Positions 14,246 through 58,757 of a stretch of 64,000 nt of DNA are shown here, one piece after another. Both the position numbers and the translations under genes were made by a program. How positions within the stretch are numbered: the stretch's first letter is position 1; each line of letters begins with the position of its first letter. The notes below the pieces were generated by a model that saw nothing but the letters and a program-made list of their open reading frames with translations, did not search any database and was not told the DNA's origin. Location: NCBI GenBank assembly GCA_929200535.1, contig CAKMZV010000001.1, positions 45,470 through 109,469 of the forward strand, given 5' to 3'. The stretch is from an uncultured Gammaproteobacteria bacterium. GTDB lineage: Bacteria > Pseudomonadota > Gammaproteobacteria > CAKMZV01.

Positions 14246-14406
14246 TGAGACCTTTGCACAAAAGATATGACAAGTAAAAAAGTAAAAAATCGCCCTGATT
14301 TTCGTTGTGAAACTTGCGAAGACGGACGTATTAGCTGCGTTCCACGCCTCAATCAGAACGATTTTTTATCTTTTTTCTTTTACCATACTTTTATGCAAAG
14401 GTCTCA
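14246..14406 (+). mobile_element. MITE-like palindromic repeat, copy 1 (orientation B)
   Basis: tgagacctttgcacaaaagatatgacaagtaaaaaa...ttttatgcaaaggtctca; about 161 bp, terminal inverted repeats, internal arms mutually complementary (aaaaaatcg(c/t)cctgatt...gtgaaa); 3' terminus overlaps the stop codon of the downstream minus-strand gene. Confidence 0.85.
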
Positions 14407-40035: not shown

Positions 40036-40263
40036 TGAGACCTTTGCATAAAAGTATGGCACACAAAACGTTTTTACTCTTGGCGAGTTTACGAGCCTTA
40101 GAGTAACAGTGTTTGAACTGCTTGCAGGTAAAAGAAAAAAGATAAAAAATCGTTCTGATTGAGACGTGAAATGAAGCTAATACGTCCGTCTTCGCAAATT
40201 TCACAACGATAATCAGAGCGGTTTTTTGCTTTTTTACTTGTCATATCTTTTGTGCAAAGGTCT
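40036..40263 (-). mobile_element. MITE-like palindromic repeat, copy 5 (orientation A) carrying a 68-bp internal insertion
   Basis: tgagacctttgcataaaagtatggcacacaaaacgtttttactcttggcgagtttacgagccttagagtaacagtgtttgaactgcttgcaggtaaaagaaaaaagataaaaaatcg...tgtgcaaaggtctta; insert identical to that in truncated copy at 56641. Confidence 0.8.
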
Positions 40264-40911: not shown

Positions 40912-42408
40912 TCAGTTCATCGTTGGCATAGAAAACTCAATGCCCTCACGGACTCCAGCAGAAGGCCAACGTTGGGTGATTGTTTTGCGTTTGGTATAAA
41001 AACGTACTGAGTCTGGACCATAAGCGTGTAAATCACCAAAAAGCGAGCGTTTCCAACCGCCAAAACTGTGATAGGCAACGGGTACTGGTAAAGGAACATT
41101 AATGCCGACCATACCAACTTGTATATGATCAGAAAAATAGCGTGCTGCCTCTCCATCACGAGTAAAAATACAGGTGCCATTGCCATATTCGTGGGCATCA
41201 ATTAAATCCATTGCCTCTTGCATTGTTTTGACTCTGATAACTTGTAGGACTGGTCCAAAAATTTCTTCTTTATAACTGCTCATATCCGCAGTCACATTAT
41301 CAAGCAGTGTGCCGCCAACATAAAAACCATCTTCATAGCCTTTAACTTTAGGATTTCTACCATCAACGACCACCGTTGCCCCTTGTTTTTCGGCACTCTC
41401 AATATAGCCCTCAACTTTTTCTTGATGTTGTTTTGTAATCACTGGACCAAAGTCATTGCTACTGTCACTAAAGGCTCCAACTTTGAGATCGCTCATTCCT
41501 GTAGCCAGTTTTTCAACTAATAAATTAGCAACCGCATCGCCTACTGCAACCACAACCGATAAAGCCATACAACGTTCGCCCGAGGAGCCAAAGGCAGCAC
41601 CAAGCAATTGATTGACCGCATTATCAACATCCGCATCCGGCATTACTATCGCATGATTTTTTGCCCCACCCAGAGCTTGCACGCGCTTACCATTGGCATT
41701 TGCTTGAGTATAAATATATTCGGCAATAGGGGTTGAGCCCACAAAACTGACCGCCTTAATTCGAGCATCCGATAATAAAGTATCGACTGCCACTTTATCA
41801 CCATTGACGACATTCATCACTCCATCAGGTAAGCCTGCTTGTTTTAATAAATCGGCAATAAACAAGGCTGCACTTGGATCTCTCTCAGAAGGTTTTAGAA
41901 TAAAACAATTGCCACAAACAATTGCCATTGGGAACATCCATAGGGGAACCATCGCTGGAAAGTTAAAGGGCGTAATTCCGGCAACAACACCCAGAGGTTG
42001 AAATTCACTCCATGAGTCAATATTTGGACCAACATTTTTGCTATGCTCTCCCTTTAATAGCTCGGGTGCTCCACAGGCATATTCAACATTTTCAATACCG
42101 CGCTGTAATTCCCCCATTGCATCGTGGGCAATTTTGCCATGCTCTTCACCAATTAATTGACAAATTTTTTCAGCATTTTTTTCCAATAGTTCTTTGTAGC
42201 GAAACATCACTCTCGCTCTTTTAATAGCAGGCGTATTACGCCAAGCAGGATAGGCTGCTTGGGCATAAGTAATCGCTTGTTCAACAAGCTCTTTAGAGGC
42301 TAATAAAACCTCTTTTTCTGCTTGCCCAGTTGTTGGGTTATATACCGCTTGTGTACGATCATTATTCGTACATATCTCACCATTAATAAAATGCCCGATA
42401 GTTTTCAT
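40912..42408 (-). CDS. mmsA: Methylmalonate-semialdehyde / malonate-semialdehyde dehydrogenase (CoA-acylating)
   Basis: 498 aa aldehyde dehydrogenase; MmsA-type catalytic segment GERCMALS; clustered with pyrimidine reductive catabolism genes. Confidence 0.8.
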   Translation of the reverse strand: MKTIGHFINGEICTNNDRTQAVYNPTTGQAEKEVLLASKELVEQAITYAQAAYPAWRNTPAIKRARVMFRYKELLEKNAEKICQLIGEEHGKIAHDAMGELQRGIENVEYACGAPELLKGEHSKNVGPNIDSWSEFQPLGVVAGITPFNFPAMVPLWMFPMAIVCGNCFILKPSERDPSAALFIADLLKQAGLPDGVMNVVNGDKVAVDTLLSDARIKAVSFVGSTPIAEYIYTQANANGKRVQALGGAKNHAIVMPDADVDNAVNQLLGAAFGSSGERCMALSVVVAVGDAVANLLVEKLATGMSDLKVGAFSDSSNDFGPVITKQHQEKVEGYIESAEKQGATVVVDGRNPKVKGYEDGFYVGGTLLDNVTADMSSYKEEIFGPVLQVIRVKTMQEAMDLIDAHEYGNGTCIFTRDGEAARYFSDHIQVGMVGINVPLPVPVAYHSFGGWKRSLFGDLHAYGPDSVRFYTKRKTITQRWPSAGVREGIEFSMPTMN

Positions 42409-42449
42409 AAATCCTCTTTATCGTTTTACAATATAAAATTTTCAATCTT

Positions 42450-43736
42450 TCACTCAATATTTTTGCTTTTGAAATCGACCTCGAAAGTGTTGCCATTTAA
42501 GTTCAAATGGCTCACTAATGGCTTGGCTTTTGCCACTATTTCACCAAATCGAAAAACATACAGCCTAATTGCCTTAAGGCGAATAGCTTCGATTGAGTCT
42601 GATGCCTGTAGAATAATTATATTTGCATCGTTGCCTTTTTGTATGCCATAGCCATCAAGTTGCATTACTTTTGCCGAATGGGTTGTGATTGTTTCATACA
42701 TATAACGCATTTCTTCAAGAGCGGTCATCTGTTGGCTATGAATTGCCATATTTGCTACCGCAAGCATATCATGAGAGCCTAAACTATACCAAGGGTCCAT
42801 CACGCAATCATGCCCAAGAGAAACATTAATATCAAAATCACGCATCTCACGGATTCTCGTCATACCTCTTCTTTTAGGGTAGTTGTCATGGCGACCTTGC
42901 AAAGAAATATTGATCAAAGGATTGGCAACAACATTAACATCTGCCTCAGCCATAAGCGGTAATAATTTACTCACATAGTAGTTATCCATAGAGTGCATTG
43001 AAGTCAAATGCGAGCCAGTAACTCGACCTTGTAATCCCAGACGATGTGTTTCATAGGTTAGGGCTTCAATATGTCGTGAAAGCGGGTCATCGGATTCATC
43101 ACAATGCATATCAACCAACAACCCTCTATCAGCAGCCAATTCACATAATGTGGTAATGGAGCGAGTTCCTTCACTCATCGTGCGTTCAAAATGTGGAATC
43201 CCACCTACCACTTCAACCCCCATATCTATCGCCTTAAGCAAATTTTTCTCTGCACCTTCTGAGCGATACAATCCATCTTGAGGAAAGGCAACTAATTGTA
43301 AAGTGAGCCAAGGAGCTATTTCTTTTTTAACTTCTAACAATGCCTCAACGGTAATTAATCTTGAGTCGGTAATATCGACGTGGCTACGAATCGCTTGAAT
43401 GCCTTGAGCTATTGACCATCGGCACATAGCCAACGCTCTTTTTTTTACCTCTTCGGCTGTTAACAAAGGGCGTAATTCACCCCAAAGTTGAATGCCTTCT
43501 AATAGAGTACCACTCTCATTCATCCGTGGATTGCCCAGACTTAAGGCGGCATCTAAATGAAAATGAGTATCAATAAATGGGGGAGAAATTAAACAGCCTT
43601 TGGCATCTATCGTTTGTCTTGAATTAATTTTTAATTCCTTACCAATTTCGACTATTTTTCCTTTATCAATCGCTATATCGATTTGTTGTTGCCCATCAAT
43701 TAAATTGCCCTGGCGAATAATTGTGTCTATCGTCAT
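42450..43736 (-). CDS. Cytosine deaminase-like amidohydrolase (CodA family)
   Basis: 428 aa; metal-binding PFIDTHFHLD motif, amidohydrolase fold, CodA-like length. Confidence 0.65.
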   Translation of the reverse strand: MTIDTIIRQGNLIDGQQQIDIAIDKGKIVEIGKELKINSRQTIDAKGCLISPPFIDTHFHLDAALSLGNPRMNESGTLLEGIQLWGELRPLLTAEEVKKRALAMCRWSIAQGIQAIRSHVDITDSRLITVEALLEVKKEIAPWLTLQLVAFPQDGLYRSEGAEKNLLKAIDMGVEVVGGIPHFERTMSEGTRSITTLCELAADRGLLVDMHCDESDDPLSRHIEALTYETHRLGLQGRVTGSHLTSMHSMDNYYVSKLLPLMAEADVNVVANPLINISLQGRHDNYPKRRGMTRIREMRDFDINVSLGHDCVMDPWYSLGSHDMLAVANMAIHSQQMTALEEMRYMYETITTHSAKVMQLDGYGIQKGNDANIIILQASDSIEAIRLKAIRLYVFRFGEIVAKAKPLVSHLNLNGNTFEVDFKSKNIE

Positions 43737-44716
43737 ATTCTTTCTCCTTTTCTAAAGGGTACCAATAATGCTCTCGGATAACGAGCCTTTCGAGCAACAA
43801 TAATCATTGCCACAATGGACATAATATAGGGTAGCATTAGGAAAAATTGATAAGGGATAACATCGCCACTAAATTGTTGCACGCGCACCTGTAACGCTTC
43901 GAGACCGGCAAAAATAAAAGCTCCAAATAATGCTTTACCTGGTTTCCAAGAGGCAAAAATAACGAGTGCTACGGCAATCCATCCGCGACCATTAATCATC
44001 CCAAAATAAAAGGCATCAAAAGCAGACATCGTTAAAAACGCACCACCAACTGCCATAAATCCACTACCAATCATTACCGCAAATGTACGCACTCGCAAAA
44101 CATTAATTCCTTGAGCCTCCACTGCCACCGGACATTCCCCTGCCATCCTAACCGCAAGCCCAGCTGGAGTACGATAAAGAACGTACCACACAATCGGTAC
44201 CAGCAATAAGGCGAAATAGGTAAGCGGTGTTTGATTGAATAATGCCTCACCAAACACCGGGATTTCCGCAAGAAAGGGAATAGCGTAATTCTCAAATGGA
44301 ACAATTTTTGGTGGCGTAGTAGCCGAGGGCAATAACAAGCGATAAGCATAGTAGCTCAAGGAGGCTGCAAATAGTGTAATGCCTATTCCTGTTACGTGCT
44401 GTGATAATCCAGCATAGACTGTAAAACAACTATGAATAAAGCCAAAAACAGCACCGATGAAAAAGGCAAAAAGAACGCCTGTCCATAAATCACCACCTTG
44501 GTAAACCCACATCCAACCGCACATAGCCCCCATTGTCATAATCCCCTCAATACCAAGGTTTAATACGCCGGCACGCTCGCAAATTAACTCACCCAAAGTA
44601 GCTAAAATTAATGGACTCACAATCCGAATAGTGGCAGCCCAAAATCCAGTCGTTAATAAAAGTTCTAATATTTCCATCTTATTTAAAACGAAGACGATAT
44701 TGGGTAAACATAACAC
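43733..44716 (-). CDS. ABC transporter permease (BMP/nucleoside-type, NupQ-like)
   Basis: 327 aa polytopic permease, overlapping start/stop with neighbouring permease. Confidence 0.8.
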   Translation of the reverse strand: MLCLPNIVFVLNKMEILELLLTTGFWAATIRIVSPLILATLGELICERAGVLNLGIEGIMTMGAMCGWMWVYQGGDLWTGVLFAFFIGAVFGFIHSCFTVYAGLSQHVTGIGITLFAASLSYYAYRLLLPSATTPPKIVPFENYAIPFLAEIPVFGEALFNQTPLTYFALLLVPIVWYVLYRTPAGLAVRMAGECPVAVEAQGINVLRVRTFAVMIGSGFMAVGGAFLTMSAFDAFYFGMINGRGWIAVALVIFASWKPGKALFGAFIFAGLEALQVRVQQFSGDVIPYQFFLMLPYIMSIVAMIIVARKARYPRALLVPFRKGERI

Positions 44717-45728
44717 TCACTAACACACATAATACCGAAACACCAACAATAACATCTGCCAAATAGGCAGGAATATTTAATACTCGACTCATTGAATCTG
44801 CCCCCACATACACTACCGATATAAAAAATGCCGAAATAACAACACCTATTGGATTGAGCTGAGCTAACATCGCAACCACTATTCCCGTATAGCCAAACCC
44901 TGGCGATAAATCTAAGGTAAGATAGCCCTTTAAACCGGCAACTTCACTCACCCCTGCAAGCCCTGCCAATCCACCACTAATAAGCGAAACTTTGATGATT
45001 GTCATATTCACAGGAATACCAAAAAAATTAGAGGCTTGTAGGTTTAAACCGACGGCACGACTGGCATAACCAAAGGTAGTAAAACGCATTACTATCCACG
45101 TAATAACGGCGGCAATCAATGCAAATATGAGCCCCAAATGTACTCTGCTTTTTTCAAACAGGGGTGGAAATACTCCCTCGTCAATAATTGAGGCTGTTTG
45201 TGGCCAGCCCAACGAAGCAGGGTCTTTCATTGGTCCTTCAATAAGATAGCTGACCATCAATAAAACAATAAAGTTTAATAGTAAGGTGGTAACCACCTCA
45301 TCAACTTTTAAATGTGTCTTAAGTAGGACCGGAACAATAAGAAGCAACCCACCTGCTATTACCCCACAAAGCATCAGTAATGGAATCATCGCTATGGGTG
45401 GCAAGGTAATCATCCCACTACCAATATAAACGGCTGCCAAGGCCCCACAATACAATTGCCCTTCACACCCTATATTATAAAATTTTGACCTAAAGGCTAC
45501 TGCCACTGCTAAGCCAGTAAAAATAAGCGGAATGGAGCGACTCAATGTTTCCATAATGGCAAAGCGTGAACCTAAGCCACCATTAAGTAATGCCCCGTAA
45601 GCCGTGAATACTGGGGCGTCTGCCCAAATGATTAATACTGAACAGAGCGATAATGCAACAATCATTGCAAATAATGGTGCAAACAACACTAACCAAAACG
45701 GGGTATTTGTTCTAACTTCTAATTGCAT
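44679..45728 (-). CDS. ABC transporter permease (BMP/nucleoside-type, NupP-like)
   Basis: 349 aa polytopic permease. Confidence 0.8.
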   Translation of the reverse strand: MQLEVRTNTPFWLVLFAPLFAMIVALSLCSVLIIWADAPVFTAYGALLNGGLGSRFAIMETLSRSIPLIFTGLAVAVAFRSKFYNIGCEGQLYCGALAAVYIGSGMITLPPIAMIPLLMLCGVIAGGLLLIVPVLLKTHLKVDEVVTTLLLNFIVLLMVSYLIEGPMKDPASLGWPQTASIIDEGVFPPLFEKSRVHLGLIFALIAAVITWIVMRFTTFGYASRAVGLNLQASNFFGIPVNMTIIKVSLISGGLAGLAGVSEVAGLKGYLTLDLSPGFGYTGIVVAMLAQLNPIGVVISAFFISVVYVGADSMSRVLNIPAYLADVIVGVSVLCVLVSVMFTQYRLRFK

Positions 45729-45740
45729 ATTTTAAACTTT

Positions 45741-47270
45741 TTAATTTATGGAGGTATTATCGGTACCTAATTGCCCTGCCATCATCAAACCAATCTCCGA
45801 AATGCTTTTTGACTCGGCTTTAAATACCTTGCTAATGTAGCCATCACACATCACCATTAAATCATCACACATCGTTAATAACTCATCTATGTCGGTAGAA
45901 ATTAACAATATACCAGCACCTCTATTGCGTGCGTCCATTAATTGGGTTTGTACATAAGCTATTGAACCCTCATCCAATCCTCGAACCGGTTGATTGGCAA
46001 CAATAAACCCAGGATTTTGAGTAAGAGTTCGTGCTAAAATCAATTTTTGAATGTTTCCACCCGATAATAAATTAGCCTGTGCATTGGTGCCTGAACAACG
46101 TATATCAAAATCATCAATCAATTGCTCACTGTGTTGGATTGCAGATTTTTTATCGATGCAACAACCAAAATGTGTCATCTGATTTAGACTTAACCTTTCA
46201 CCAATGAGATTTTCCCATAGTTTCATTTCCCCAACAATGCCTTCAGTATGGCGATCTTCAGGAATACGGGCAACCCCTTGGCGTATCATAGATAGTGGAC
46301 TGTTTTTTTCTATTGTATTACCAAACAAATTCATCGTCCCAGAGTTATGTTGTATCATACCCGATAACAAACGGGCTAATTGTAACTGACCATTTCCTGA
46401 AACGCCGACAATACCAAGAATTTGGTGCGAACGAACTTGTAAGGTTATATTATGTAATTGCACCGAGCTTTCACCTTTTTCCCCAACGGTTGAAATATTG
46501 TCAAGCTCGACAACAATATCGCCGTATTGCTGATTTTTTTTGCTCGGATAACTCACCTTGTGCCCAACCATCATCTCACTGAGGATATTTTTATCCGCTT
46601 CTTTTGTCAGCACCTCTCCCACTAATTTACCTCTTCTTAACACTGCCACACGATCGGTAACAGAAAGAATTTCGTGGAGTTTATGAGTAATAAAAATAAT
46701 GGTAAGCCCCTTTTTTGATAAATCTTTAAGGGATGAAAAAAGCTTTTCTGTTTCTTGAGGAGTTAAGACTGCCGTGGGTTCATCGAGGATTAAGATTTTC
46801 ACATCTCGATAAATTGCCTTAAGAATTTCGACTCGTTGACGCTCACCAACCGTCAATTCACTCACTTGTTTTTGAGCATCAATTTCTAAACCAAACTCAT
46901 GAGATAGGTTCTCAAGGCGTTTGCTTGCTTTTGCTCTATCTTGTCGCCATGCGAATAGACTTTCTGTGCCAAGCACAATATTTTCCATAACGCTAAGATT
47001 ATCTGCCAGCGTAAAATGTTGGTGAACCATACCAATTCCAGCGTTGATTGCTGCCTCAGTATGGTTCGGTAAAATTTCACCATTGACCTTTATCCAACCT
47101 TCATCAGCCGAGTAATGACCAAATAAGATATTCATTAATGTGGTTTTGCCAGCTCCGTTTTCACCTAACAAAGCAACTATCTCACCCGCATCAAGAGCGA
47201 GTGAGATATTCTCATTAGCTAACAAGTTGCCAAAACGCTTGCTAATATTATTAAGTTCAAGTACTGGCAC
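45741..47270 (-). CDS. ABC transporter ATP-binding protein, duplicated ATPase (sugar/nucleoside type)
   Basis: 509 aa with two ABC cassettes (GENGAGKTT ... and second domain GVSGNGQ). Confidence 0.85.
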   Translation of the reverse strand: MPVLELNNISKRFGNLLANENISLALDAGEIVALLGENGAGKTTLMNILFGHYSADEGWIKVNGEILPNHTEAAINAGIGMVHQHFTLADNLSVMENIVLGTESLFAWRQDRAKASKRLENLSHEFGLEIDAQKQVSELTVGERQRVEILKAIYRDVKILILDEPTAVLTPQETEKLFSSLKDLSKKGLTIIFITHKLHEILSVTDRVAVLRRGKLVGEVLTKEADKNILSEMMVGHKVSYPSKKNQQYGDIVVELDNISTVGEKGESSVQLHNITLQVRSHQILGIVGVSGNGQLQLARLLSGMIQHNSGTMNLFGNTIEKNSPLSMIRQGVARIPEDRHTEGIVGEMKLWENLIGERLSLNQMTHFGCCIDKKSAIQHSEQLIDDFDIRCSGTNAQANLLSGGNIQKLILARTLTQNPGFIVANQPVRGLDEGSIAYVQTQLMDARNRGAGILLISTDIDELLTMCDDLMVMCDGYISKVFKAESKSISEIGLMMAGQLGTDNTSIN

Positions 47271-47287
47271 AAGACGATAAATTTATA

Positions 47288-47325
47288 TAAAGACTATCTC
47301 CCACGTAGGAGCGTGGGAGCAAGAA
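47288..47325. repeat. REP-like hairpin (tctcccacgtaggagcgtgggagcaagaag)
   Basis: Inverted repeat ctcccacg/cgtgggag around taggag; same family as 22905-22945; sits between SBP gene and ABC ATPase gene. Confidence 0.5.
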
Positions 47326-47345
47326 GGTAAAAAAAACATCCATTA

Positions 47346-48347
47346 TTAGTAAGTTGATTTAGGTTGCTCGTCATTAATATTGACCACAAACTTGCCACTT
47401 AAAATTTCTTTTTCAAGTTGCTTTACTTTCTTCTTAACCGCTGGTGCAATTTTATTTTCAAACTCATAATAAGGAGCCAAAGACGCACCTCCTTTTTGCA
47501 TCATTGTCCATTCCTTATAATTCTCAGCCTTGTAAGTTCCTGCTTTAACTTGCTCAATAGCATAGTCAATAGCATTATACATATGCCATAATGCAGAGGT
47601 TACAACAACATCCTTGCCATTTTCTTCTTTGTTCATATCATTCACATTACCAAAAGCAAGAACCCCTTTAGTTCTGGCAGCATCAACTACGCCAGCACGC
47701 TCGGCATAAAGGACATCAACCCCTGCCTCAATTTGTGCAAAAGCGGCTTCTTTCGCTTTAGGTGGGTCAAACCAAGAACCAATAAAAGTAACTTTAAATT
47801 CCGTCTTAGGGTTAGAAGCGCGCGCACCCTCTATAAAAGAATGAAATAAACGATTTACCTCACCAATGGGATAGCCACCGACCATTCCTATTTTATTGCT
47901 TTTAGTCATAGAGCCTGCAATATACCCCATCAAGTAAGTAGCCTCATGAATATAGTTATCAAAAACCGAAAAGTTCTTGCCATGAGGTTTGAATGGATCG
48001 CCCATAAGAAAAGCAACTTTAGGATAATCATCCGCTACCTTACGAGCTTCTTTACTTATACCAAAGGCCTCTCCAACAACAAGCTGTACTCCGCTCTCAG
48101 CATATTCACGGAGAACACGAACATAGTCAGTATTAGGCACTTTTTCCGAAAAAACATACTCAATTTTCCCGTCTTTTTCAGCCTTTACTAACGCCTCATG
48201 CAAACGAGCATCCCATTTTTGTTGAATAGGTTGCGTATAAATACCGGCAACCTTAATTTTTCCCGCAAAAACAGACGGCACCAATCCCATAAACGCAACA
48301 AATGAGACTAACAACATTACTACTTTTTTTACTATTGATATTTTCAT
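47346..48347 (-). CDS. BMP-family ABC transporter substrate-binding lipoprotein (nucleoside-binding, PnrA/Med-like)
   Basis: 333 aa, signal peptide, BMP family fold motifs (GxxDxxF, VGEAFG). Confidence 0.8.
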   Translation of the reverse strand: MKISIVKKVVMLLVSFVAFMGLVPSVFAGKIKVAGIYTQPIQQKWDARLHEALVKAEKDGKIEYVFSEKVPNTDYVRVLREYAESGVQLVVGEAFGISKEARKVADDYPKVAFLMGDPFKPHGKNFSVFDNYIHEATYLMGYIAGSMTKSNKIGMVGGYPIGEVNRLFHSFIEGARASNPKTEFKVTFIGSWFDPPKAKEAAFAQIEAGVDVLYAERAGVVDAARTKGVLAFGNVNDMNKEENGKDVVVTSALWHMYNAIDYAIEQVKAGTYKAENYKEWTMMQKGGASLAPYYEFENKIAPAVKKKVKQLEKEILSGKFVVNINDEQPKSTY

Positions 48348-48387
48348 ACTACTCTCCTATAAATTAAAAGCAAAACAATAAAAAGGT

Positions 48388-49830
48388 TTACTTATTGACC
48401 CTATTTAAAATAACATAAATAACTGCCCCTATAAGAAAACCAGTAAACCAACCATAATCATATAAGCCTCTTAACAAATTACCTTGGTCTTGAAAAGTAC
48501 CAAGTATTGCCAAAATGACTGGCACTCCCCAAGCAATAATCCCATTAAGATTGTATCCACTATGAACTCCTTGAGATTTATAAAGAGATGTAACTTCAAG
48601 TTCTTGCTTTTTGACAATGAAAAAATCAGCTATCATAATTCCAGCAACTGGACCAAGTAGGCTGGAGTAGCCCAATAACCAATTAGCATATCTTCCTTCA
48701 AGACCATCGCCACTCACAATACCAGCAACACGCATTAAGTCCCATGCCATCAATAAAATACCAACGAGACCCGTCATTAATACACCTCTGCGTCTGTCAA
48801 TCAATTTTGCTGATATATTTTGAAAATCATTGGTTGGTGAAACAATGTTGGCAGCGGTATTGGTAGAAATAGTCGCAAGGATAATCATTATCATTAAGAT
48901 AACAACCACAAATCCACTTTCGAGTTTTCCAATCAACGTCACTGGATCTGCAATCGCTTCACCAAATATACTCACGCTCGCACCAGTCATAATAACACCA
49001 AGAGCAGAGAATAAAAACATAGTCACCGGTAGCCCAATAATTTGCCCGTGTATTTGTGCTTTTTGGCTTTCAGCGAAGCGACTAAAATCAGGTATATTGA
49101 GTGCTAATGTTGCCCAAAATCCGACCATCGCCGTTAGAGCAGCAAAGAAATACCCAAAAAAACCAGCATCTTCAGGACGATTAGCTGGAGCTCCAAAAAC
49201 CTGCCCTAAATCAGCAACACTACTCCCCCAGTAAAGTAAAACCGCACTAACAATTAGTAACAGTGGAGCAGACACTGTCTCTAATATCTTGATTGACTCA
49301 GAACCTTTTAAAACCACATAAATATTTAATGTCCAAAATATAAAAAAACCAATCACCTGACCATAACCGCCAAGGTTTTCCCAACCAGGGATGAGGTTAT
49401 CAAAAAGAATATCTATCGCAAGACCACCAAACATTGTTTGAATTCCAAACCAACCACAGGCGACAACTGCCCGTACTAAAGCAGGAATATTAGAGCCTTT
49501 TATGCCAAATGATGATCTCAGCAAGACTGGAAACGGTATTCCATACTTTGTTCCTGGAATAGCATTTAGGCAAAGTGGTATCAACACAACGACATTTGCT
49601 ATAAATATCGTAAATAATGCCTCCATAACACTTAACCCAAAATAGGCTGTTAATATGCCACCCAATGTGTAGGTAGGAATACAAATAGACATACCAACCC
49701 ACAAAGAGGCGATATGCCATTTATTCCAAGTTCGTTGCTTTAATGTCGTTGGAGCAAGGTCTTCATTAAATCCCGGTTCATTTTTAATCTCCTCAATAGA
49801 GTTCAACTCATGTATATCTTCTTGCATCAT
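48388..49830 (-). CDS. NCS1-family nucleobase:cation symporter (cytosine/uracil/hydantoin/allantoin permease type)
   Basis: 480 aa, 12 TM, NCS1 signature region near TM1 (NKWHIASLWVGM). Confidence 0.8.
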   Translation of the reverse strand: MMQEDIHELNSIEEIKNEPGFNEDLAPTTLKQRTWNKWHIASLWVGMSICIPTYTLGGILTAYFGLSVMEALFTIFIANVVVLIPLCLNAIPGTKYGIPFPVLLRSSFGIKGSNIPALVRAVVACGWFGIQTMFGGLAIDILFDNLIPGWENLGGYGQVIGFFIFWTLNIYVVLKGSESIKILETVSAPLLLIVSAVLLYWGSSVADLGQVFGAPANRPEDAGFFGYFFAALTAMVGFWATLALNIPDFSRFAESQKAQIHGQIIGLPVTMFLFSALGVIMTGASVSIFGEAIADPVTLIGKLESGFVVVILMIMIILATISTNTAANIVSPTNDFQNISAKLIDRRRGVLMTGLVGILLMAWDLMRVAGIVSGDGLEGRYANWLLGYSSLLGPVAGIMIADFFIVKKQELEVTSLYKSQGVHSGYNLNGIIAWGVPVILAILGTFQDQGNLLRGLYDYGWFTGFLIGAVIYVILNRVNK

Positions 49831-49926
49831 TGCTTCTCCTTAACTTTATGTTAATAATAAAATCACTCTCAAATACTAAAAAATACTACCTCTTAAAATA
49901 TGGTCCGTCTAAAAAAGCCTAAAAAT

Positions 49927-51225
49927 TTAACTAACTTTAGCCGGATTATTAGGATGAGTCGTCCAATCAGAATGTGTATTTACTATCGGTTTACCTGTTC
50001 TCAAATCAACTCCCTCAGTTTGAGCAACCATAGTAATACAATTTTCAACAGGACAAACGCTCACACATAAATTACAACCCACACACTCCTCCTCAATGAC
50101 TTCAAAAAATCGAACACCATCTTTTTCTTTAGTAATTGCTTGGTGAGAAGTGTCTTCGCAAGCAATATGACAACGGCCACACTTTATGCAGGCATCTTGA
50201 TCAATTACCGCTTTATCAATATGATTTAAATTAAGATTTTTCCAATCAGTTACCGAAGGAACCGCACGACCCACCAAATCATTTACTGAGGCAATCCCTT
50301 TTTCATCAAGAAAGCCACTTAATCCACTTTTAAGCTCATCAACAATACGAAATCCATATACCATTGCAGCGGTGCAGACCTGAACCGTCGTTGAACCAAG
50401 TGTTATAAACTCAACAGCATCCTTCCAAGAACTAATCCCACCAATGCCTGAAATGGGCAATCCACTTGTTTTCTTATTGCGAGCAATTTCGGCAACCATA
50501 TTAAGTGCAATCGGTTTTACCGCTTCGCCACAATAACCACCATGACTACCCATACCACCTGTATTAGGATACATATTAAAGGTATCGAGATCAACTCCCA
50601 TAATGGAATTTATCGTGTTGATTAGCGAAACCGCATCGGCTTTCCCCTCTAAGGCGGCTTCCGCTATCGGTACCACATTGGTCACGTTCGGAGTTAGTTT
50701 AACGATGACTGGAAGAGAGGTTGCTTTTTTGCAAAACTCGGTACATAGTCGGACATATTCTGGCACTTGACCAACTGCAGAGCCCATTCCTCTTTCAGAC
50801 ATTCCATGCGGACAACCAAAATTTAATTCAAAACCATCTACGCCTGCTTTTTCCATTTCTGGAATCAATTCAAGCCAATATTTTTCTTCCATAGGAAACA
50901 TTGCTGAACCTATGATTACTCTATCTGGCCAATTTTTTTTAACTTGCTCAATTTCCCTAATGTTCGTCTCAAAAGAACGATCTGAGATTAATTCAATATT
51001 ATTAAAGCCAATAACCCGTCTTTCATTGCTAAGTTTAGAAGAATAACGAGGTCCATTAACATTAACAACAGGTGGGTTAACACCCAAAGTTTTCCAAACA
51101 ACTCCACCCCATCCCGCCTCAAAGGCTCTTTCGACATTGTATGCCTTATCCGTTGGTGGAGCCGATGCTAACCAAAATGGATTGGGCGACTGAATACCTA
51201 AAAAATTTGTTGTTAAATCTGCCAT
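49927..51225 (-). CDS. preA: NAD-dependent dihydropyrimidine dehydrogenase subunit PreA (DHOD-like TIM barrel plus 2x[4Fe-4S])
   Basis: 432 aa; dihydroorotate-dehydrogenase-like domain then CIKCGRCHIACED and CVGCNLCVSVCP ferredoxin motifs. Confidence 0.85.
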   Translation of the reverse strand: MADLTTNFLGIQSPNPFWLASAPPTDKAYNVERAFEAGWGGVVWKTLGVNPPVVNVNGPRYSSKLSNERRVIGFNNIELISDRSFETNIREIEQVKKNWPDRVIIGSAMFPMEEKYWLELIPEMEKAGVDGFELNFGCPHGMSERGMGSAVGQVPEYVRLCTEFCKKATSLPVIVKLTPNVTNVVPIAEAALEGKADAVSLINTINSIMGVDLDTFNMYPNTGGMGSHGGYCGEAVKPIALNMVAEIARNKKTSGLPISGIGGISSWKDAVEFITLGSTTVQVCTAAMVYGFRIVDELKSGLSGFLDEKGIASVNDLVGRAVPSVTDWKNLNLNHIDKAVIDQDACIKCGRCHIACEDTSHQAITKEKDGVRFFEVIEEECVGCNLCVSVCPVENCITMVAQTEGVDLRTGKPIVNTHSDWTTHPNNPAKVS

Positions 51226-51242
51226 TTTATTCCTCTCTTCTT

Positions 51243-52595
51243 TTACCCGTTAATTGATTGGTGAATGTCTCTTGCCGCTATCTTACCATCTTCTACTGCT
51301 GCCACTACTAAATCGTAGCCATTATCAATGCAATCACCTCCTGCCCATACACCCTCACTCGAAGTACGCCGATTAATATCAACAACGATCTTGGCTCGAT
51401 CACACTGTAATTGGTTAATTCCATCAACCTCATTATCAAGTAGCTGACCTACCGCTTTAAATAGACTATCAGTTTGCATTGTGTGCATTTTCCCAGTTCC
51501 TTTTAACTCTCCTTCTGCAAGTTTAGTTTCCTCAATCACTATTTCAGATACGGCATTATTATTAGTCACAATTTGCGAAATTTTTGACCAAAAATGAATA
51601 TCAACACCATTGGTTTGTGCAAACTTGCGTTCGACATCGCTTGCTCCCATTTCATCAGGACCACGACGGTAAATAATAGCAACTCGTTTGGCTCCTAAGC
51701 GTTTGCTTTGTACGGCAATATCTATGGCAGTCATCCCACCGCCAATAACAACTACATTGTCTCCAACAGAAAGATTTTTAAGATCGTCGCTTTGTCTTAG
51801 CACCGAAATATAATCTACTGCATCTTGAATACCATCGGCACATTCATTTTCAAGATCAAGAGCACGCACGCCTGCCAACCCTACGGCAAGAAAAACGGCA
51901 TCAAAATCCTTTTGTAAATTGCCCAAGGTTAGGTCACGACCTAATGCCATACCCGTTTTTATCTCTATGCCACCCAAATCCATAATATATTGAATTTCTT
52001 TTTGGGCAAAGTCATCAACTGTTTTATAAGCAGCAATACCATACTCATTTAAGCCTCCTGCTTTATTTTTATCCTCAAAAACAGTCACACTATTGCCAAG
52101 CATCGAGAGTTGGTGGGCACAAGCCATTCCAGCAGGTCCTGCACCAACTACGGCAATTTTCTTGCCCGTGTCGGCTTGTCGTTCAAATAATTGTTTTCCT
52201 GTGGACTGCACCGAATCAGTCGCATATCGTTGCAATAAGCCAATTGCTACTGGTTTATCTTCGTGAGTATTTCTAACGCAATCTCCTTCACAGAGGTTTT
52301 CTGTGGGGCAAACTCGTGCACACATTCCACCCATAATATTGGAATCAAGAATTGTCTTAGCTGCTCCGGAGGTATCTTTTGTATAAATTTGACGAATAAA
52401 TAATGGAATATCAATACTCGTCGGGCATGCTGCTGTACATGGAGCATCGTAACAGTAGTAGCATCTATCAGCTTCAATGCCAACCGTTGTATCCGTTAAA
52501 GGTGGATGTATATCCGCAAAATTATCCTCTAACTGTTTGGCTGAAAGCGTGCTATCCGATTGAGGATGAATTACAACATTATCATTTGTTCTCAT
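51243..52595 (-). CDS. preT: Dihydropyrimidine dehydrogenase subunit PreT (GltD-like NAD(P)H oxidoreductase)
   Basis: 450 aa; N-terminal Cys cluster, two Rossmann motifs (VVGAGPAGMACA; VVVIGGGMTAID). Confidence 0.85.
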   Translation of the reverse strand: MRTNDNVVIHPQSDSTLSAKQLEDNFADIHPPLTDTTVGIEADRCYYCYDAPCTAACPTSIDIPLFIRQIYTKDTSGAAKTILDSNIMGGMCARVCPTENLCEGDCVRNTHEDKPVAIGLLQRYATDSVQSTGKQLFERQADTGKKIAVVGAGPAGMACAHQLSMLGNSVTVFEDKNKAGGLNEYGIAAYKTVDDFAQKEIQYIMDLGGIEIKTGMALGRDLTLGNLQKDFDAVFLAVGLAGVRALDLENECADGIQDAVDYISVLRQSDDLKNLSVGDNVVVIGGGMTAIDIAVQSKRLGAKRVAIIYRRGPDEMGASDVERKFAQTNGVDIHFWSKISQIVTNNNAVSEIVIEETKLAEGELKGTGKMHTMQTDSLFKAVGQLLDNEVDGINQLQCDRAKIVVDINRRTSSEGVWAGGDCIDNGYDLVVAAVEDGKIAARDIHQSING

Positions 52596-52626
52596 TAGCT
52601 TCTTGCTCCTAATTTAATTATTCAAA

Positions 52627-54223
<1,597 letters not shown>

Positions 54224-54259
54224 TTAAATATGACTCTTTTATACCTTAGGCTACCTCTA

Positions 54260-55135
54260 TTAGAATTCGACTAAGTCATCATATAACTCAGGTCTGCGAT
54301 CCCGAAAGAATTGCCAAGTATCACGAACTTCCCTAATCATATCAAGATCAATCTCGTGTACTAATAACTCATCATCACCATAGCTCGCCTGTGCCTCAAT
54401 TTGCCCACGTGGGTTCACAATGTACGTAGAGCCATAGAACTCGCCCATTTTATCAGACCAAGGAGCCTCTTTACCCACTCTGTTAATTGCACCAATAAAA
54501 ACACCGTTGGCTGCAGCCGAGGCAGGTTGCTCCAATTCCCATAAATACTTGCTCAAGCCTGCAACCGTTGCAGAAGGGTTAACAATATAATCTGCTCCAT
54601 TGAGTGCCAAAGCTCTCCAACCTTCTGGGAAATGTCGGTCATAGCATATATACACACCAAGATTTAAATAGGCTGTTTGGAAAACAGGATAACCCAAATT
54701 ACCCGGCTTAAAGAAAAATTTCTCAAAAAATCCAGGTTGCACATCTGGGATATGAGTCTTACGATATTTTCCTAAAAAAGTACCATCCGCATCAATCACA
54801 GCTGCCGTATTGTAATAAACTCCCTTTATCGTTTCCTCGTAAATAGGAACAATAATAACCATATTGTGCTTCTTCGCATATTCTTGCATTAGCCGAACCG
54901 TGTAACCATCCGGAATTTGTTCAGCAGCAGCATACCATTTAGGATCTTTGCTTGGGCAAAAATAGGGTTGTGTAAATACCTCTTGAAAACATAAAACTTG
55001 AACTCCTTTTTTCGCAGCTTCATCAATATAGGGTAAATGTGCCTCAAGCATTAAATCCCGAATTTTTTCAGGACTCATTGAGCAATCGCCTTTTAACCCC
55101 ATTTGAATAAGACCACAAGTTACTTTTTTCGTCAT
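54260..55135 (-). CDS. Beta-ureidopropionase-like carbon-nitrogen hydrolase (nitrilase superfamily)
   Basis: 291 aa; CN-hydrolase E-K-C triad context (CFQE..., ...YRKTHIP, ICYDRHFPE). Confidence 0.75.
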   Translation of the reverse strand: MTKKVTCGLIQMGLKGDCSMSPEKIRDLMLEAHLPYIDEAAKKGVQVLCFQEVFTQPYFCPSKDPKWYAAAEQIPDGYTVRLMQEYAKKHNMVIIVPIYEETIKGVYYNTAAVIDADGTFLGKYRKTHIPDVQPGFFEKFFFKPGNLGYPVFQTAYLNLGVYICYDRHFPEGWRALALNGADYIVNPSATVAGLSKYLWELEQPASAAANGVFIGAINRVGKEAPWSDKMGEFYGSTYIVNPRGQIEAQASYGDDELLVHEIDLDMIREVRDTWQFFRDRRPELYDDLVEF

Positions 55136-55186
55136 TACATTTCTCCTTTTTAGTAAATTTTTTAGTTTTCTGTTATTCGATGCTTC

Positions 55187-56494
55187 CTATTTAAGTCTCA
55201 ATAATACTTCTCGCAAAATCGTACCAAGCTCATCTATATTTTCTTTTTCAAAGGGCAAAGGTGGTGATAAAGCAATAATGTCGCCCGTTGTGCGAATGAG
55301 CAAACCACTCTCAAAAGCATCAATAAACGCACTAAAGGCTCTTTTAGTTGGCATTCCCTCTATTGGCTCCAATTCAATCGCACCAATAAAACCCAGATTA
55401 CGAATATCAATCACATAAGGCAAGCCCTTGAAGCTATGTAACATCTCTTGCCAATAATGAGTAAACGATGGATCTTTAGAAAATAATTGCTCTGATTCAT
55501 ACACATCAAGACACGCCATTGCAGCTGCACATGCTACTGGGTTACCCGAATATGTATAGCCATGGAAAAACTCAATTAAATGCTCTGCTCCAGACATAAA
55601 AGCATCATAAATAAAATCCTTACAAATAACTGCTCCCATCGGCACAGTAGCATTAGTCAAGCCTTTTGCGGTTGTTACTATATCTGGAATAACTCCAAAA
55701 TAATCAACTGCAAACGGAACCCCAAGACGTCCAAAACCAGTAATCACCTCATCAAAGATAAGTAAAATACCATTTTCATCACAAATCTCACGAATACGCT
55801 CTAAATATCCTTTTGGTGGAATAAGCACTCCTGTAGAACCCGCTACAGGCTCGATAATAAGTGCGGCAATCGTTTCAGCTCCATACAAATTAATGACACG
55901 TAGTAAATCTTCCGCATATTCAGCACCATATTCAGGCATACCACGTGAAAAAGCATTACGAGAAATGTCATGGGTGTGTTTAATATGATCAACGCTTGGT
56001 AGCAAGTCACCAAAACTGTCTCTATTAGGCGGAATACCGCCAACAGAAATTCCACCAAAATTTACGCCGTGATAACCTCTTTCACGACCAATAAGGTGAA
56101 CTCTTTTTTCTTGACCTATTGCTTTTTGATATGAGACTGCTATTTTCAAAGCGGTCTCTACAGATTCTGAACCTGAATTGGTAAAAAATACCTTATTCAT
56201 ATCAGTAGGGAAATAGTTGCTCAATCGACTTGCAAGAGCAAATGCAGCTGGATGTCCCATTTGGAAAGAAGGTGCGTAATCTAAAACAGAAAGTTGTTTG
56301 CTAACTACCTCTTGAATATGAGGATGACAATGACCTGCATTTGAACACCACAACCCCGAAGTACCATCAAGGATAGTTCGACCATCCTCGCTTGTATAAT
56401 ACAAGCCGTTAGCACTAACCAACATCCTAGGCGTTTGCTTAAATTGCCTATTTGCCGTAAATGGCATCCAAAGATTTTCGAGCGTTGACTTCAT
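55187..56494 (-). CDS. Class III aminotransferase (beta-alanine/3-aminoisobutyrate:pyruvate aminotransferase-like)
   Basis: 435 aa; PLP-lysine region IPDIVTTAKGL, class III fold; in beta-alanine-producing cluster. Confidence 0.8.
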   Translation of the reverse strand: MKSTLENLWMPFTANRQFKQTPRMLVSANGLYYTSEDGRTILDGTSGLWCSNAGHCHPHIQEVVSKQLSVLDYAPSFQMGHPAAFALASRLSNYFPTDMNKVFFTNSGSESVETALKIAVSYQKAIGQEKRVHLIGRERGYHGVNFGGISVGGIPPNRDSFGDLLPSVDHIKHTHDISRNAFSRGMPEYGAEYAEDLLRVINLYGAETIAALIIEPVAGSTGVLIPPKGYLERIREICDENGILLIFDEVITGFGRLGVPFAVDYFGVIPDIVTTAKGLTNATVPMGAVICKDFIYDAFMSGAEHLIEFFHGYTYSGNPVACAAAMACLDVYESEQLFSKDPSFTHYWQEMLHSFKGLPYVIDIRNLGFIGAIELEPIEGMPTKRAFSAFIDAFESGLLIRTTGDIIALSPPLPFEKENIDELGTILREVLLRLK

Positions 56495-56566
56495 CGTAAA
56501 TTAAATCTCCTTAAAGAGTTTTTTACTTAAAAATGAGTACAGCATACTAACTTTACATTAAACCAT

Positions 56567-56625
56567 AAAGCTGACCATTTAGTCAATCAAATTGGTCAAA
56601 TAAATTTGACTAATTAGTCAGCTTT
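56567..56625. promoter_or_regulatory. Tandem RutR-box-like TetR operator palindromes upstream of pyrimidine-catabolism operon
   Basis: aaagctgaccatttagtcaatcaaattggtcaaataaatttgactaattagtcagcttt: contains CTGACCATTTAGTCAA (56571-56586) and TTGACTAATTAGTCAG (56606-56621), both close to RutR consensus TTGACCAnnTGGTCAA, embedded in a larger perfect palindrome. Confidence 0.55.
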
Positions 56626-56640
56626 ATAAAAAAAACATTC

Positions 56641-56754
56641 TGAAACCTTTGCATAAAAGTATGGCACAAAAAACGTTTTTACTCTTGGCGAGTTTACGAG
56701 CCTTAGAGTAACAGTGTTTGAACTGCTTGCAGGTAAAAGAAAAACGAAAAGCGA
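56641..56754 (-). mobile_element. MITE-like repeat, truncated copy 7 (5' half only, with the same 68-bp insertion as copy 5)
   Basis: tgaaacctttgcataaaagtatggcacaaaaaacgtttttactcttggcgagtttacgagccttagagtaacagtgtttgaactgcttgcaggtaaaagaaaaa then diverges. Confidence 0.7.
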
Positions 56755-56896
56755 AAAAGGATTAACTCTCTAAGACTGTTGCAGAATGGAAAAGGGCAAA
56801 AGAAATCACCCTATCCTTTGGGCACCTCCTCCGAGGGAGGGGAATGAGTAGAAACGTTTTGCCAAAACGTCTCTATGCTATATCTGACTACCTCTA

Positions 56897-57559
56897 CTAA
56901 TCTTCTCTTAATTCGTGAAAGACCGCACCAAGTATCAGTTTGACAACTTCGTTACGTTTATTTTTATATTCTTGTTTAGATAAACGCTTATTTTTATTAA
57001 GAACAGTGATTTGATATTCAAAATCCGCATAATGCTGGGTTGTTGCCCAAATCATATAAAGCAAAGCATTGGCATCAATATCTTTGATAATACCCTCTTG
57101 CTTCCATTTATTGATCACTCCAACACGTAAGTCAACCCATTCATTAAAGCTACTGGGGATTTTTATAAAGGTTTTTTTAGATACTCTGCCACTCACAAGA
57201 ATAAAATGTGCCCAGATTTTTGACGCATGAGGATATTCACGAGAAAAATCCATTTTTTCTTCTATGTAGCTCTTGAGTATCATATAAGGGTCTCCAACAA
57301 GGTTAAACATTTTTCCTTCCTGTAGCCAATCATCAAGAATGGTTTCAATAACTATTTGATATAACTCTGCCTTCGTTTGCACATAGTAAAGAACCGTTGA
57401 TTTAGGTAATTTTGCTTCTTCGGCAATCATACTCATCGTCGCCCCTTTATATCCATTTAAAGCAAAAATTTTCTCAGCAGCTTTATATATTTTTTTGCTT
57501 CGTATTTTACGTTTTTTAAATCGTTCAATCGTCATTTTTACGCTAAGAAATTCAGTCAA
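56897..57559 (-). CDS. TetR-family transcriptional regulator (RutR-like)
   Basis: 220 aa; N-terminal TetR HTH (AAEKIFALNGYKGATMSMIAEEAKLPKSTVLYY), flanks pyrimidine catabolic genes. Confidence 0.75.
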   Translation of the reverse strand: MTEFLSVKMTIERFKKRKIRSKKIYKAAEKIFALNGYKGATMSMIAEEAKLPKSTVLYYVQTKAELYQIVIETILDDWLQEGKMFNLVGDPYMILKSYIEEKMDFSREYPHASKIWAHFILVSGRVSKKTFIKIPSSFNEWVDLRVGVINKWKQEGIIKDIDANALLYMIWATTQHYADFEYQITVLNKNKRLSKQEYKNKRNEVVKLILGAVFHELRED

Positions 57560-57606
57560 TAGTAATTGCAGTCAAAGGAGTGCTGATTTTGTAACAAACT
57601 ACACTT

Positions 57607-57776
57607 TGAGACCTTTGCATAAAAGTATGGCAAAAGAAAAAAGATAAAAAATCGTTCTGATTGAGGCGTGAAATGAAGCTAATACATCCGTCTTCGCAAG
57701 TTTTATAACGAAAATTAGGGCAATTTTTTGCTTTTTTATTTGTCATATCTTTTGTGCAAAGGTCTCTTACAGCGAA
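57607..57776 (-). mobile_element. MITE-like palindromic repeat, copy 8 (orientation A)
   Basis: tgagacctttgcataaaagtatggcaaaagaaaaaagataaaaaatcgttctgattgaggcgtgaaatgaagctaatacatccgtcttcgcaagttttataacgaaaattagggcaattttttgcttttttatttgtcatatcttttgtgcaaaggtctc. Confidence 0.85.
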
Positions 57777-58032
57777 TCAATCCCTTTTTAGATAATGTAT
57801 TGGTGAAATAACAAATCAAAAATTTAGAAAAAGTTCTTTCGGCAACCATTCGTGTATGAATTAGAACCTAAATCACATCAAAAGGCATTCCTACAAAGAG
57901 AAAAACTAACGTAAGTATTTCCCATCAATAAACCTTAACTGTTAATTTAAATCTAAAGCACTAACATAGTTTAAAGTCAAGATATGATTTATTGCAAAAT
58001 AAATGACTCTCTGACCCCAACTATTTTAGCGG

Positions 58033-58176
58033 TTACTTTTTTGGAGGAGGGGGAGGGGGTGGTGGTGATGGACGTTGAGAGGTGGTTGGCGGATTTACCC
58101 CATCTGCAACAGTTCTCCCAAAATTATTACTACCATTTGAGCTTGGTGGTGGTGGATTTGATGCTTTCTTTGACAT
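58033..58176 (-). CDS. Unannotated 47-aa proline-rich microprotein (MSKKASNPPPPSSNGSNNFGRTVADGVNPPTTSQRPSPPPPPPPPKK)
   Basis: Own translation of minus strand; ATG preceded by AGGAAGG RBS 7 nt upstream, immediately after stop of 58188-58757 gene (coupled). Below 60-aa ORF-track cutoff. Confidence 0.35.
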   Translation of the reverse strand: MSKKASNPPPPSSNGSNNFGRTVADGVNPPTTSQRPSPPPPPPPPKK

Positions 58177-58187
58177 ATATAACCTTC

Positions 58188-58757
58188 CTATTTTTTTAGT
58201 TTTAAGAACTCTACTAATTTTACATCAGAACTATCAATCAAGATATTCTCAACATTTTTTAATGCAATTTCTTTATTATCATCATCAATCCAAGAAGAAT
58301 CCGAGAGTAAAAAATGCCCATTATTGGGTTCTGTAGGCCACTCCATTGGCCAACCTAAAATTCTACGACCATCTTTTAAATGAATTACTATATAAGTAAC
58401 GCGTTCAGAAAAAGCACTAAACCATTCAGAGGCATATGATGTTTCTTTTGTAATTTTTAATTTCCTTAGAATTTTATGGAATTTATCATTATTTGTAAAA
58501 TACGCTAAAAACAACCCTAATATAATGGCAATAATTAAAGAAAAAATTAATTCAAATTTTTCGATATTGATTGCCGAAAAATAAAAAAGAAGAAATAAAA
58601 CACTTTGAATAATGACAGTAAAAATTAATGCTTGAATTACCCTTTCAAATTGAGATTGTTTAGGGTACGAGGTTAAGGCATGAAATATCCATGCAGAAAT
58701 AAAACCTGGTAACAAAAAATGCAGAGTTGCGATTAACTCTGTTGACAAATTTTCCAT
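58188..58757 (-). CDS. Hypothetical membrane protein (3 N-terminal TM helices plus about 90-aa soluble C-terminal domain)
   Basis: 189-aa ORF, AT-rich, no recognisable motif. Confidence 0.5.
   Translation of the reverse strand: MENLSTELIATLHFLLPGFISAWIFHALTSYPKQSQFERVIQALIFTVIIQSVLFLLFYFSAINIEKFELIFSLIIAIILGLFLAYFTNNDKFHKILRKLKITKETSYASEWFSAFSERVTYIVIHLKDGRRILGWPMEWPTEPNNGHFLLSDSSWIDDDNKEIALKNVENILIDSSDVKLVEFLKLKK

Follow-up and report, generated by a model that had tools for sequence, protein, structure and literature searches.

The RutR protein of Escherichia coli recognizes the consensus TTGACCAnnTGGTCAA, in which positions 4 and 13 are decisive for binding, and the sites that it binds with high affinity in vitro match 9-13 of the 14 positions (PMC2475637). 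The uracil-pocket residues of RutR were defined by mutagenesis and crystallography, and Leu78 excludes thymine; the DNA-binding domain of the protein was modelled on QacR (PMC4325133). RutR activates (carAB) as well as represses, most of its 20 ChIP-chip targets show little effect at the transcript level, and many of its sites lie inside genes (PMC2475637, PMC4325133). An activating site is located at -184.5 (PMC4325133). In Pseudomonas putida, as far as PMC4325133 describes the system, the RutR-like TetR regulator PydR represses the genes of the reductive pathway (Hidese et al. 2012, J Biochem 152:341, cited therein) and possesses Lys at the position of Leu78. RutR regulons have been reconstructed in 68 proteobacterial genomes from 13 taxonomic groups in RegPrecise, where taxon-specific substitutions in the motif were noted (Leyn et al. 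2016, PMC5343134).

We analyzed a stretch of 64,000 nucleotides (the window) from an uncultured marine-type gammaproteobacterium. An imperfect palindrome is present in front of a pyrimidine-catabolism operon. This palindrome is very probably a double operator for the RutR/PydR-like TetR repressor that is encoded just upstream on the same strand. The features of the locus are listed in Table 1.

Table 1. Positions of the features at the operator, the regulator gene and the predicted target operon in the window.
Feature	Position	Strand	Remark
Promoter-proximal RutR-type box	56571-56586		CTGACCATTTAGTCAA on the plus strand; TTGACTAAATGGTCAG in operon direction
Promoter-distal RutR-type box	56606-56621		TTGACTAATTAGTCAG on the plus strand; CTGACTAATTAGTCAA in operon direction
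Lone extra half-site TGGTCAA	56593-56599		TTGACCA on the minus strand; between the boxes; read from sequence
Putative sigma-70 operon promoter	56557-56586	minus	candidate, read by eye
Ribosome-binding site AAGGAG	56512-56507	minus	good; read from sequence
Three hairpins 3' of the regulator stop codon	56793-56875	minus	
RutR/PydR-like TetR-family regulator	56897-57535	minus	212 aa
Predicted target operon	40912-56494	minus	12 genes; starts at 56494
Omega-aminotransferase, AptA-like	55187-56494	minus	
Carbon-nitrogen hydrolase, predicted beta-ureidopropionase	54260-55135	minus	
Dihydropyrimidinase	52766-54205	minus	584 bits
PreT-like subunit	51243-52595	minus	
PreA	49927-51225	minus	673 bits
NCS1 permease	48388-49830	minus	
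BMP-family substrate-binding protein	47346-48347	minus	
ABC ATPase	45741-47270	minus	
Two ABC permeases	44679-45728 and 43733-44716	minus	
Cytosine deaminase	42450-43736	minus	
CoA-acylating methylmalonate/malonate-semialdehyde dehydrogenase	40912-42408	minus	
Dispersed repeat, copy starts	14402, 17467, 20879, 21406, 40040, 52641, 56645, 57611		copy at 14402 on the minus strand

The open frame of the regulator reaches a TTG codon at 57559 (220-aa ORF, 56897-57559). Homologues begin at MTIERF, and the start codon adopted in Table 1 is supported by database protein P0001 as well as by the locus of a sister organism (L087). Two domains were detected in the protein. The TetR helix-turn-helix (PF00440) is found at the N-terminus (5.6e-09; 36.1 bits against a cut-off of 24), and the YcdC/RutR-type C-terminal ligand-binding domain (PF08362, TetR_C_3) aligns with its profile from position 2 to position 140 of 143 (1.7e-37; 129 bits, cut-off 25). 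The best match among the NCBIfam models was RutR (TIGR03613), with 121.4 bits against an equivalog cut-off of 368, and NF011584 gave 110.6 bits, below its cut-off of 230. By these sequence comparisons, the regulator is RutR-like and is not a RutR equivalog. Its best solved relative in the phmmer search was E. coli RutR (PDB 3LOC, E = 5.8e-27). The uracil-pocket residues L74, W77, L78 and W167 of E. coli RutR are all identical in the window regulator, where they are L75, W78, L79 and W171 of the 220-aa ORF; K52 of the recognition helix is likewise shared. The identity of the regulator to its subfamily relatives is at most 49%, with a single exception.

The regulator gene and the operon are both encoded on the minus strand, and the regulator gene is located upstream. 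Thus, the boxes lie downstream of the regulator gene, and the region that holds them is not a divergent promoter region. Apart from this stretch, no sizeable non-coding sequence precedes the operon. Judging from the shared strand and the short gaps, the 12 genes probably constitute one operon. They encode the complete reductive pyrimidine pathway together with uptake systems, including a BMP-type ABC transporter specified by four of the genes, and no rut genes are present among them. The operon represents a self-contained predicted route from external cytosine or uracil to acetyl-CoA.

With a T-rich run after it, the last of the three hairpins behind the regulator gene (56812-56793) is probably a terminator that would divide the regulator transcript from the operon promoter. 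After the hairpins, a dispersed-repeat fragment, the operator, the ribosome-binding site and the first operon gene follow in this order. Directly after the regulator stop codon, there is a near-perfect palindrome with 13-nt arms (56849-56875; TAGAAACGTTTTG/CAAAACGTCTCTA), and a related 15-mer, AAAACGTTTTTACTC (56670-56684), is its inverted partner at a distance of 161 nt. This palindrome may be repeat material rather than a regulatory element. A G-rich tract, GGAGGAGGGGGAGGGGGTGGTGGTGATGG (plus strand, 58037-58075), was observed 3' of the DUF6338 gene (58188-58757, minus strand); it lies inside a 71-aa ORF that is called on contigs of the same species.

The palindrome in front of the operon extends from 56565 to 56627 and encloses the whole putative operator. 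Its arms (56565-56586 and 56606-56627) are 22 nt each, are complementary at 20 of the 22 positions and are separated by 19 nt. A palindrome between the TetR gene and the first catabolic gene had been reported from the first reading of the sequence, and its presence was confirmed; its size is, however, 63 bp and not 59 bp. The two boxes inside it had been quoted exactly. Both 16-bp boxes are self-palindromic, and their starts (and centres) are 35 bp apart. From the end of the proximal box to the start codon of the aptA-like gene, the distance is 77 nt. The proximal box matches the E. coli consensus at 12 of the 14 positions (2 mismatches, as noted before) and the distal box at 11 (likewise as noted, 3 mismatches), with A4 and T13 present in both. 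These values are within the range of the E. coli sites with high-affinity binding in vitro.

The boxes and the palindrome are unique in the window. The motif YTGACN6GTCAR occurs twice in the 64 kb, against an expected number of 0.16, and both occurrences are at the palindrome. When inverted repeats were collected that match at 20 or more of 22 positions around a loop of at most 40 nt, the palindrome was the sole example in the window, and no comparable palindrome was obtained in 20 first-order Markov randomisations.

We scanned one genome per species and obtained 80 loci with homologues of the regulator (37-46% identity). Nearly all of these loci are beside aptA-like, CN-hydrolase, dihydropyrimidinase or preT/preA genes. 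With TTGACN6GTCAA and at most one mismatch as the criterion for a box, 97 boxes were found in the 440 nt around the starts of the homologues, compared with 45 in the remaining 601 kb. The density was 2.79 per kb near the starts and 0.075 per kb elsewhere, which is a 37-fold enrichment. A weight matrix was then built solely from the 97 sites in the loci of the 80 other genomes and applied to the 64-kb window. The proximal box ranked first (20.9 bits) and the distal box second (15.6 bits). The next best score was 8.4 bits, within a gene, and the other weak matches (at 41612, 28027, 4055 and elsewhere) also gave at most 8.4 bits and were inside coding regions. As a check on the regulon, the first-pass annotation had suggested a search for further boxes upstream of the NCS1 or BMP transporter genes. 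The weight matrix detected none there, nor elsewhere inside the operon, in the 64 kb. Thus, one operator would serve the whole operon. The region 5' of the regulator gene (57536-58187) also contains no box by the weight matrix, and direct autoregulation is therefore unlikely.

At positions 10-12, both window boxes read TAG in place of TGG, a rare form found in 5 of the 97 sites of the family matrix, and their half-sites are mostly GACTA rather than GACCA. In the recognition helix, the window lineage has PKSTV(L/H)YYV, compared with PKAN(L/V/I)HYYF across the family. The changed helix alongside the GACTA half-sites is a hint, from one lineage, that the two might have changed together.

The central sequence GGTCAAATAAATTTGAC, which had also been quoted, is present at 56594-56610. 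However, it consists of the TGGTCAA half-site and the first half of the box at 56606, placed back-to-back. The 25 highest weight-matrix scores of the window include no 16-mer from between the two boxes. The central element was therefore rejected as a third, independent box; it is a single half-site only. In 35 box pairs from other genomes, no half-site is conserved between the boxes. From a comparison of the sequences, the lone half-site may be a remnant of the degenerate second box that is seen in the sister locus L087.

At least two boxes near the start of the homologue were found in 37 of the 80 loci. The spacing was 32-34 bp in 34 of 38 box pairs (in 34 of the 80 loci), close to the 35 bp in the window; many of these pairs come from two alphaproteobacterial clades and are hence not independent. 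The paired-box loci further include some from Kiloniella, Granulosicoccaceae, Rhodospirillales and Cohaesibacteraceae. Since paired boxes occur in 34 of the 80 homologous loci, the double box is a family trait. A description of this spacing was not found in the literature that could be searched. The paired-box loci comprise 35 distinct pair sequences. Across these 35 pairs, conservation follows the RutR logo; the spacers are unrelated, and at their centres the two boxes of a pair differ without compensatory changes. The two window boxes, the lack of further copies in the window and the regulator's homology are direct observations, and so is the association, throughout the family, of the regulator with box pairs and pyd genes.

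Other arrangements were also seen among the loci. In many alphaproteobacterial pyd loci (L014, L015, L017, L019, L022, L024, L025, L027, L030, L032, L039, L040 and many loci from Rhodobacterales), the RutR-like TetR gene is present as two paralogues, whose products are 30-39% identical to the window protein. The paralogues are often adjacent, with the paired boxes 5' of the first gene; the window has one such gene. In four loci from Kangiellaceae (L009, L021, L023 and L050), strong RutR boxes are located about 2.5 kb 5' of the regulator homologue and do not adjoin it, and some of them are paired at 58-73 bp. The part of these four loci that was fetched yielded no pyd homologues.

The homologues from Pseudomonas are 40-43% identical to the window regulator. 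Four PydR-like homologues from Pseudomonas/Ectopseudomonas (L053, L054, L076 and L077) lie beside genes for PreA, PreT and dihydropyrimidinase. In the fetched 8.6 kb of these loci, a canonical box (TTGACN6GTCAA, one mismatch allowed) is absent, and the operator of these homologues may be a different one. The only one of them that was translated, L053, has Lys at the position of Leu78, in the motif LLEVWKQD, and PRSN in the recognition helix.

Sister locus L087: The regulator is 75% identical to that of the window, and the order argG-regulator-aptA is also shared. The intergenic region contains TTGACCAAATAGTCAA, 7 nt and a weaker TTGACTACTCAGTCGG, and these boxes are 23 bp apart. The distal box of the window aligns with box 1 of L087, whereas outside this box the pairwise alignment of the two intergenic regions was largely uninformative, the remainder having diverged. 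The boxes are kept in the sister organism, and the long palindrome is not. Since the spacing is 35 bp in the window and 23 bp in the sister, the exact geometry is not conserved within the lineage. In a second close relative, found via ArgG (L089), the whole locus is absent.

The first-pass annotation had put forward the palindrome as an operator for the adjacent RutR-like repressor. The domains of the regulator, A4 and T13 in both boxes, the enrichment of boxes near the homologues, the rank of the two boxes by the weight matrix and the boxes of the sister organism all support this assignment as the probable one.

The candidate promoter of the operon has a -35 element TTGACT (56586-56581) within the proximal box, followed by an 18-nt spacer and an extended -10-like element TGgTTTAAT (56565-56557). 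In L087, a promoter-like layout is found at a similar distance from the start codon: TTGACT, 17 nt and TCTAAT, with TG one base 5' of the hexamer. A consensus promoter scan reported no sigma-70 promoter at the operator, because the scanner demands A at position 2 of the -10 hexamer, which is absent here. From these elements, we predict a sigma-70 promoter in which the proximal box would cover both the -35 element and the spacer, with the distal box at about -55 to -70. This geometry points to repression by occlusion.

We propose the following mechanism, in which the position of the promoter, repression rather than activation, uracil as the effector and cooperativity between dimers are the elements that we infer. 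Without pyrimidines, one repressor dimer would occupy each 16-bp box. Occupancy of the proximal box would block the -35 element and the spacer, so that RNA polymerase is excluded and the 12-gene catabolism and uptake operon is off. Uracil, either imported or formed from cytosine by the deaminase of the operon, would enter the conserved pocket (Leu75, Trp78, Leu79 and Trp171 of the 220-aa ORF). The uracil-bound repressor would leave the DNA, and the operon would be transcribed. By means of the cytosine deaminase, cytosine would induce the operon indirectly. As for the inducer, uracil or thymine had been considered. Since the equivalent of Leu78, which excludes thymine in E. coli RutR, is conserved, uracil is predicted as the inducer; by this analogy it is more likely than thymine.

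An alternative is that the RutR-like protein binds the boxes but activates the operon, as at carAB, or has little effect on it. Both modes of action and many weak targets are on record for E. coli RutR (PMC2475637, PMC4325133), and the promoter considered here is itself a prediction. However, the boxes overlap the best -35 candidate and are close to the start codon, a position that is typical of repression, whereas the activating site in E. coli is far off. Furthermore, in the case of this pathway, the characterised regulator PydR acts as a repressor according to the source cited above. A binding with little effect is difficult to reconcile with the conservation across families of the double box beside pyd genes, which argues for a function. 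We therefore consider this alternative improbable.

The palindrome might also act as RNA: a hairpin in the operon leader, or in read-through from the regulator gene, might stabilise, terminate or attenuate the transcript. The minus-strand RNA of 56555-56640 indeed folds with -27.1 kcal/mol (z = -6.5 against shuffles). When the intergenic region was searched against Rfam under permissive settings, chance-level microRNA models were obtained, and these weak matches mirror the shape of the hairpin; in the whole window, the real matches at the gathering threshold were two tRNAs. However, such a fold arises automatically from any two palindromic boxes, and there is neither a U-tract after the hairpin nor a match to an Rfam family. 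The 35 box pairs show conservation at the RutR-logo positions, no compensatory changes and unrelated spacers, and in the sister organism it is the boxes that are kept and not the long palindrome. Moreover, the predicted -35 element is inside the palindrome, and most of the palindrome would therefore be untranscribed from that promoter. A function as RNA is very improbable.

That the palindrome is part of a dispersed MITE-like repeat, or a chance AT-rich palindrome, and unrelated to regulation is hardly credible: a repeat fragment does begin at 56645, 24 nt from the distal box, and the genome is AT-rich, but the other seven copies are without boxes and have unrelated flanks, the boxes are nowhere else in the 64 kb, the sister organism has the boxes and no repeat copy in the same intergenic region, and the randomisations contained no comparable palindrome.

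The MITE-like dispersed repeat was observed in at least eight copies in the 64 kb, all intergenic and of about 160 nt each. Its terminal inverted repeats are GAGACCTTTGCATAAAAGTATGG ... CATATCTTTTGTGCAAAGGTCTC, and the palindrome does not recur with them. The whole repeat folds as one long hairpin (-64.9 kcal/mol, z = -8.6), and no Rfam match was found for it. One copy is located just 5' of the regulator gene and another in the operon, between the dihydropyrimidinase and preT-like genes; the variant that starts 24 nt from the operator is truncated. The copies at 56645-56744 and 40040-40139 show 99% identity over 100 nt. Beyond the left terminal repeat, these two share about 65-80 nt (starting with CACAAAACGTTTTTACTCTTGGCGAG...) that the others lack, which points to a nested insertion or to a second type of element. 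Because of the repeat material and this shared stretch, the region between the regulator gene and the operon is 402 nt in the window and about 216 nt in L087.

The double operator for the RutR/PydR-like repressor thus remains our reading of the palindrome. With it, the 12 genes that form a complete route from cytosine and uracil to acetyl-CoA in this uncultured bacterium receive, as predictions, a regulator, an operator and a probable inducer, and the assignment is useful for annotation and for the interpretation of metatranscriptomes. RutR boxes, the repression of the reductive pathway by a RutR-like protein and comparative RutR regulons are already published, and the understanding of RutR-family regulation is unchanged by the present finding. 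One generalisation alone is mildly new: paired RutR boxes about 33 bp apart are widespread in the control regions of the Pyd pathway. A broader proposal would be that the Pyd branch of the RutR family uses a distinct operator of two boxes 32-35 bp apart, bound by cooperative dimers, and that regulator and operator have co-evolved in the present lineage (GACCA to GACTA, with the changed helix). We regard this as a tentative idea that is rather doubtful at present.

In comparison with the known systems, the window regulator resembles E. coli RutR in its TetR_N and YcdC-type C-terminal domains, its pocket residues and K52. The boxes also resemble that of E. coli: a 16-bp palindrome with A4 and T13, and a pyrimidine-degradation operon beside the regulator gene. 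The arrangement differs in several respects. In E. coli, a single box (PMC4325133) is located in the rutR-rutABCDEFG intergenic region and belongs to the Rut pathway, whereas the window has two boxes in front of the reductive Pyd route (PreT/PreA, dihydropyrimidinase, CN-hydrolase and aminotransferase). Unlike the E. coli gene, the window regulator gene points in the same direction as the operon and is not preceded by a box. The rut promoter of E. coli is sigma-54/NtrC-dependent (PMC4325133), whereas a sigma-70-type promoter is predicted in the window. The half-sites also differ, being mostly GACTA in the window and GACCA in E. coli.

The RegPrecise regulons rest on the same type of inference as ours, namely a RutR-family regulator combined with palindromic boxes before pyrimidine-catabolism genes. 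The arrangement proposed here, with putative cooperativity, is similar to that of QacR in that two TetR-family dimers would occupy one control region. However, the two QacR dimers share one 28-bp inverted repeat, whereas the window contains two separate, complete 16-bp palindromes.

PydR of P. putida and the window regulator would have the same physiological role, as far as the former is described in the source cited above. At the position of Leu78, however, the window protein has Leu and PydR, according to that source, has Lys; thus, the window protein is PydR-like in its presumed role and, by this criterion, not an orthologue. Since the pathway that it is predicted to control is the reductive Pyd pathway and not the Rut pathway, its closest counterpart in function is PydR and not E. 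coli RutR.
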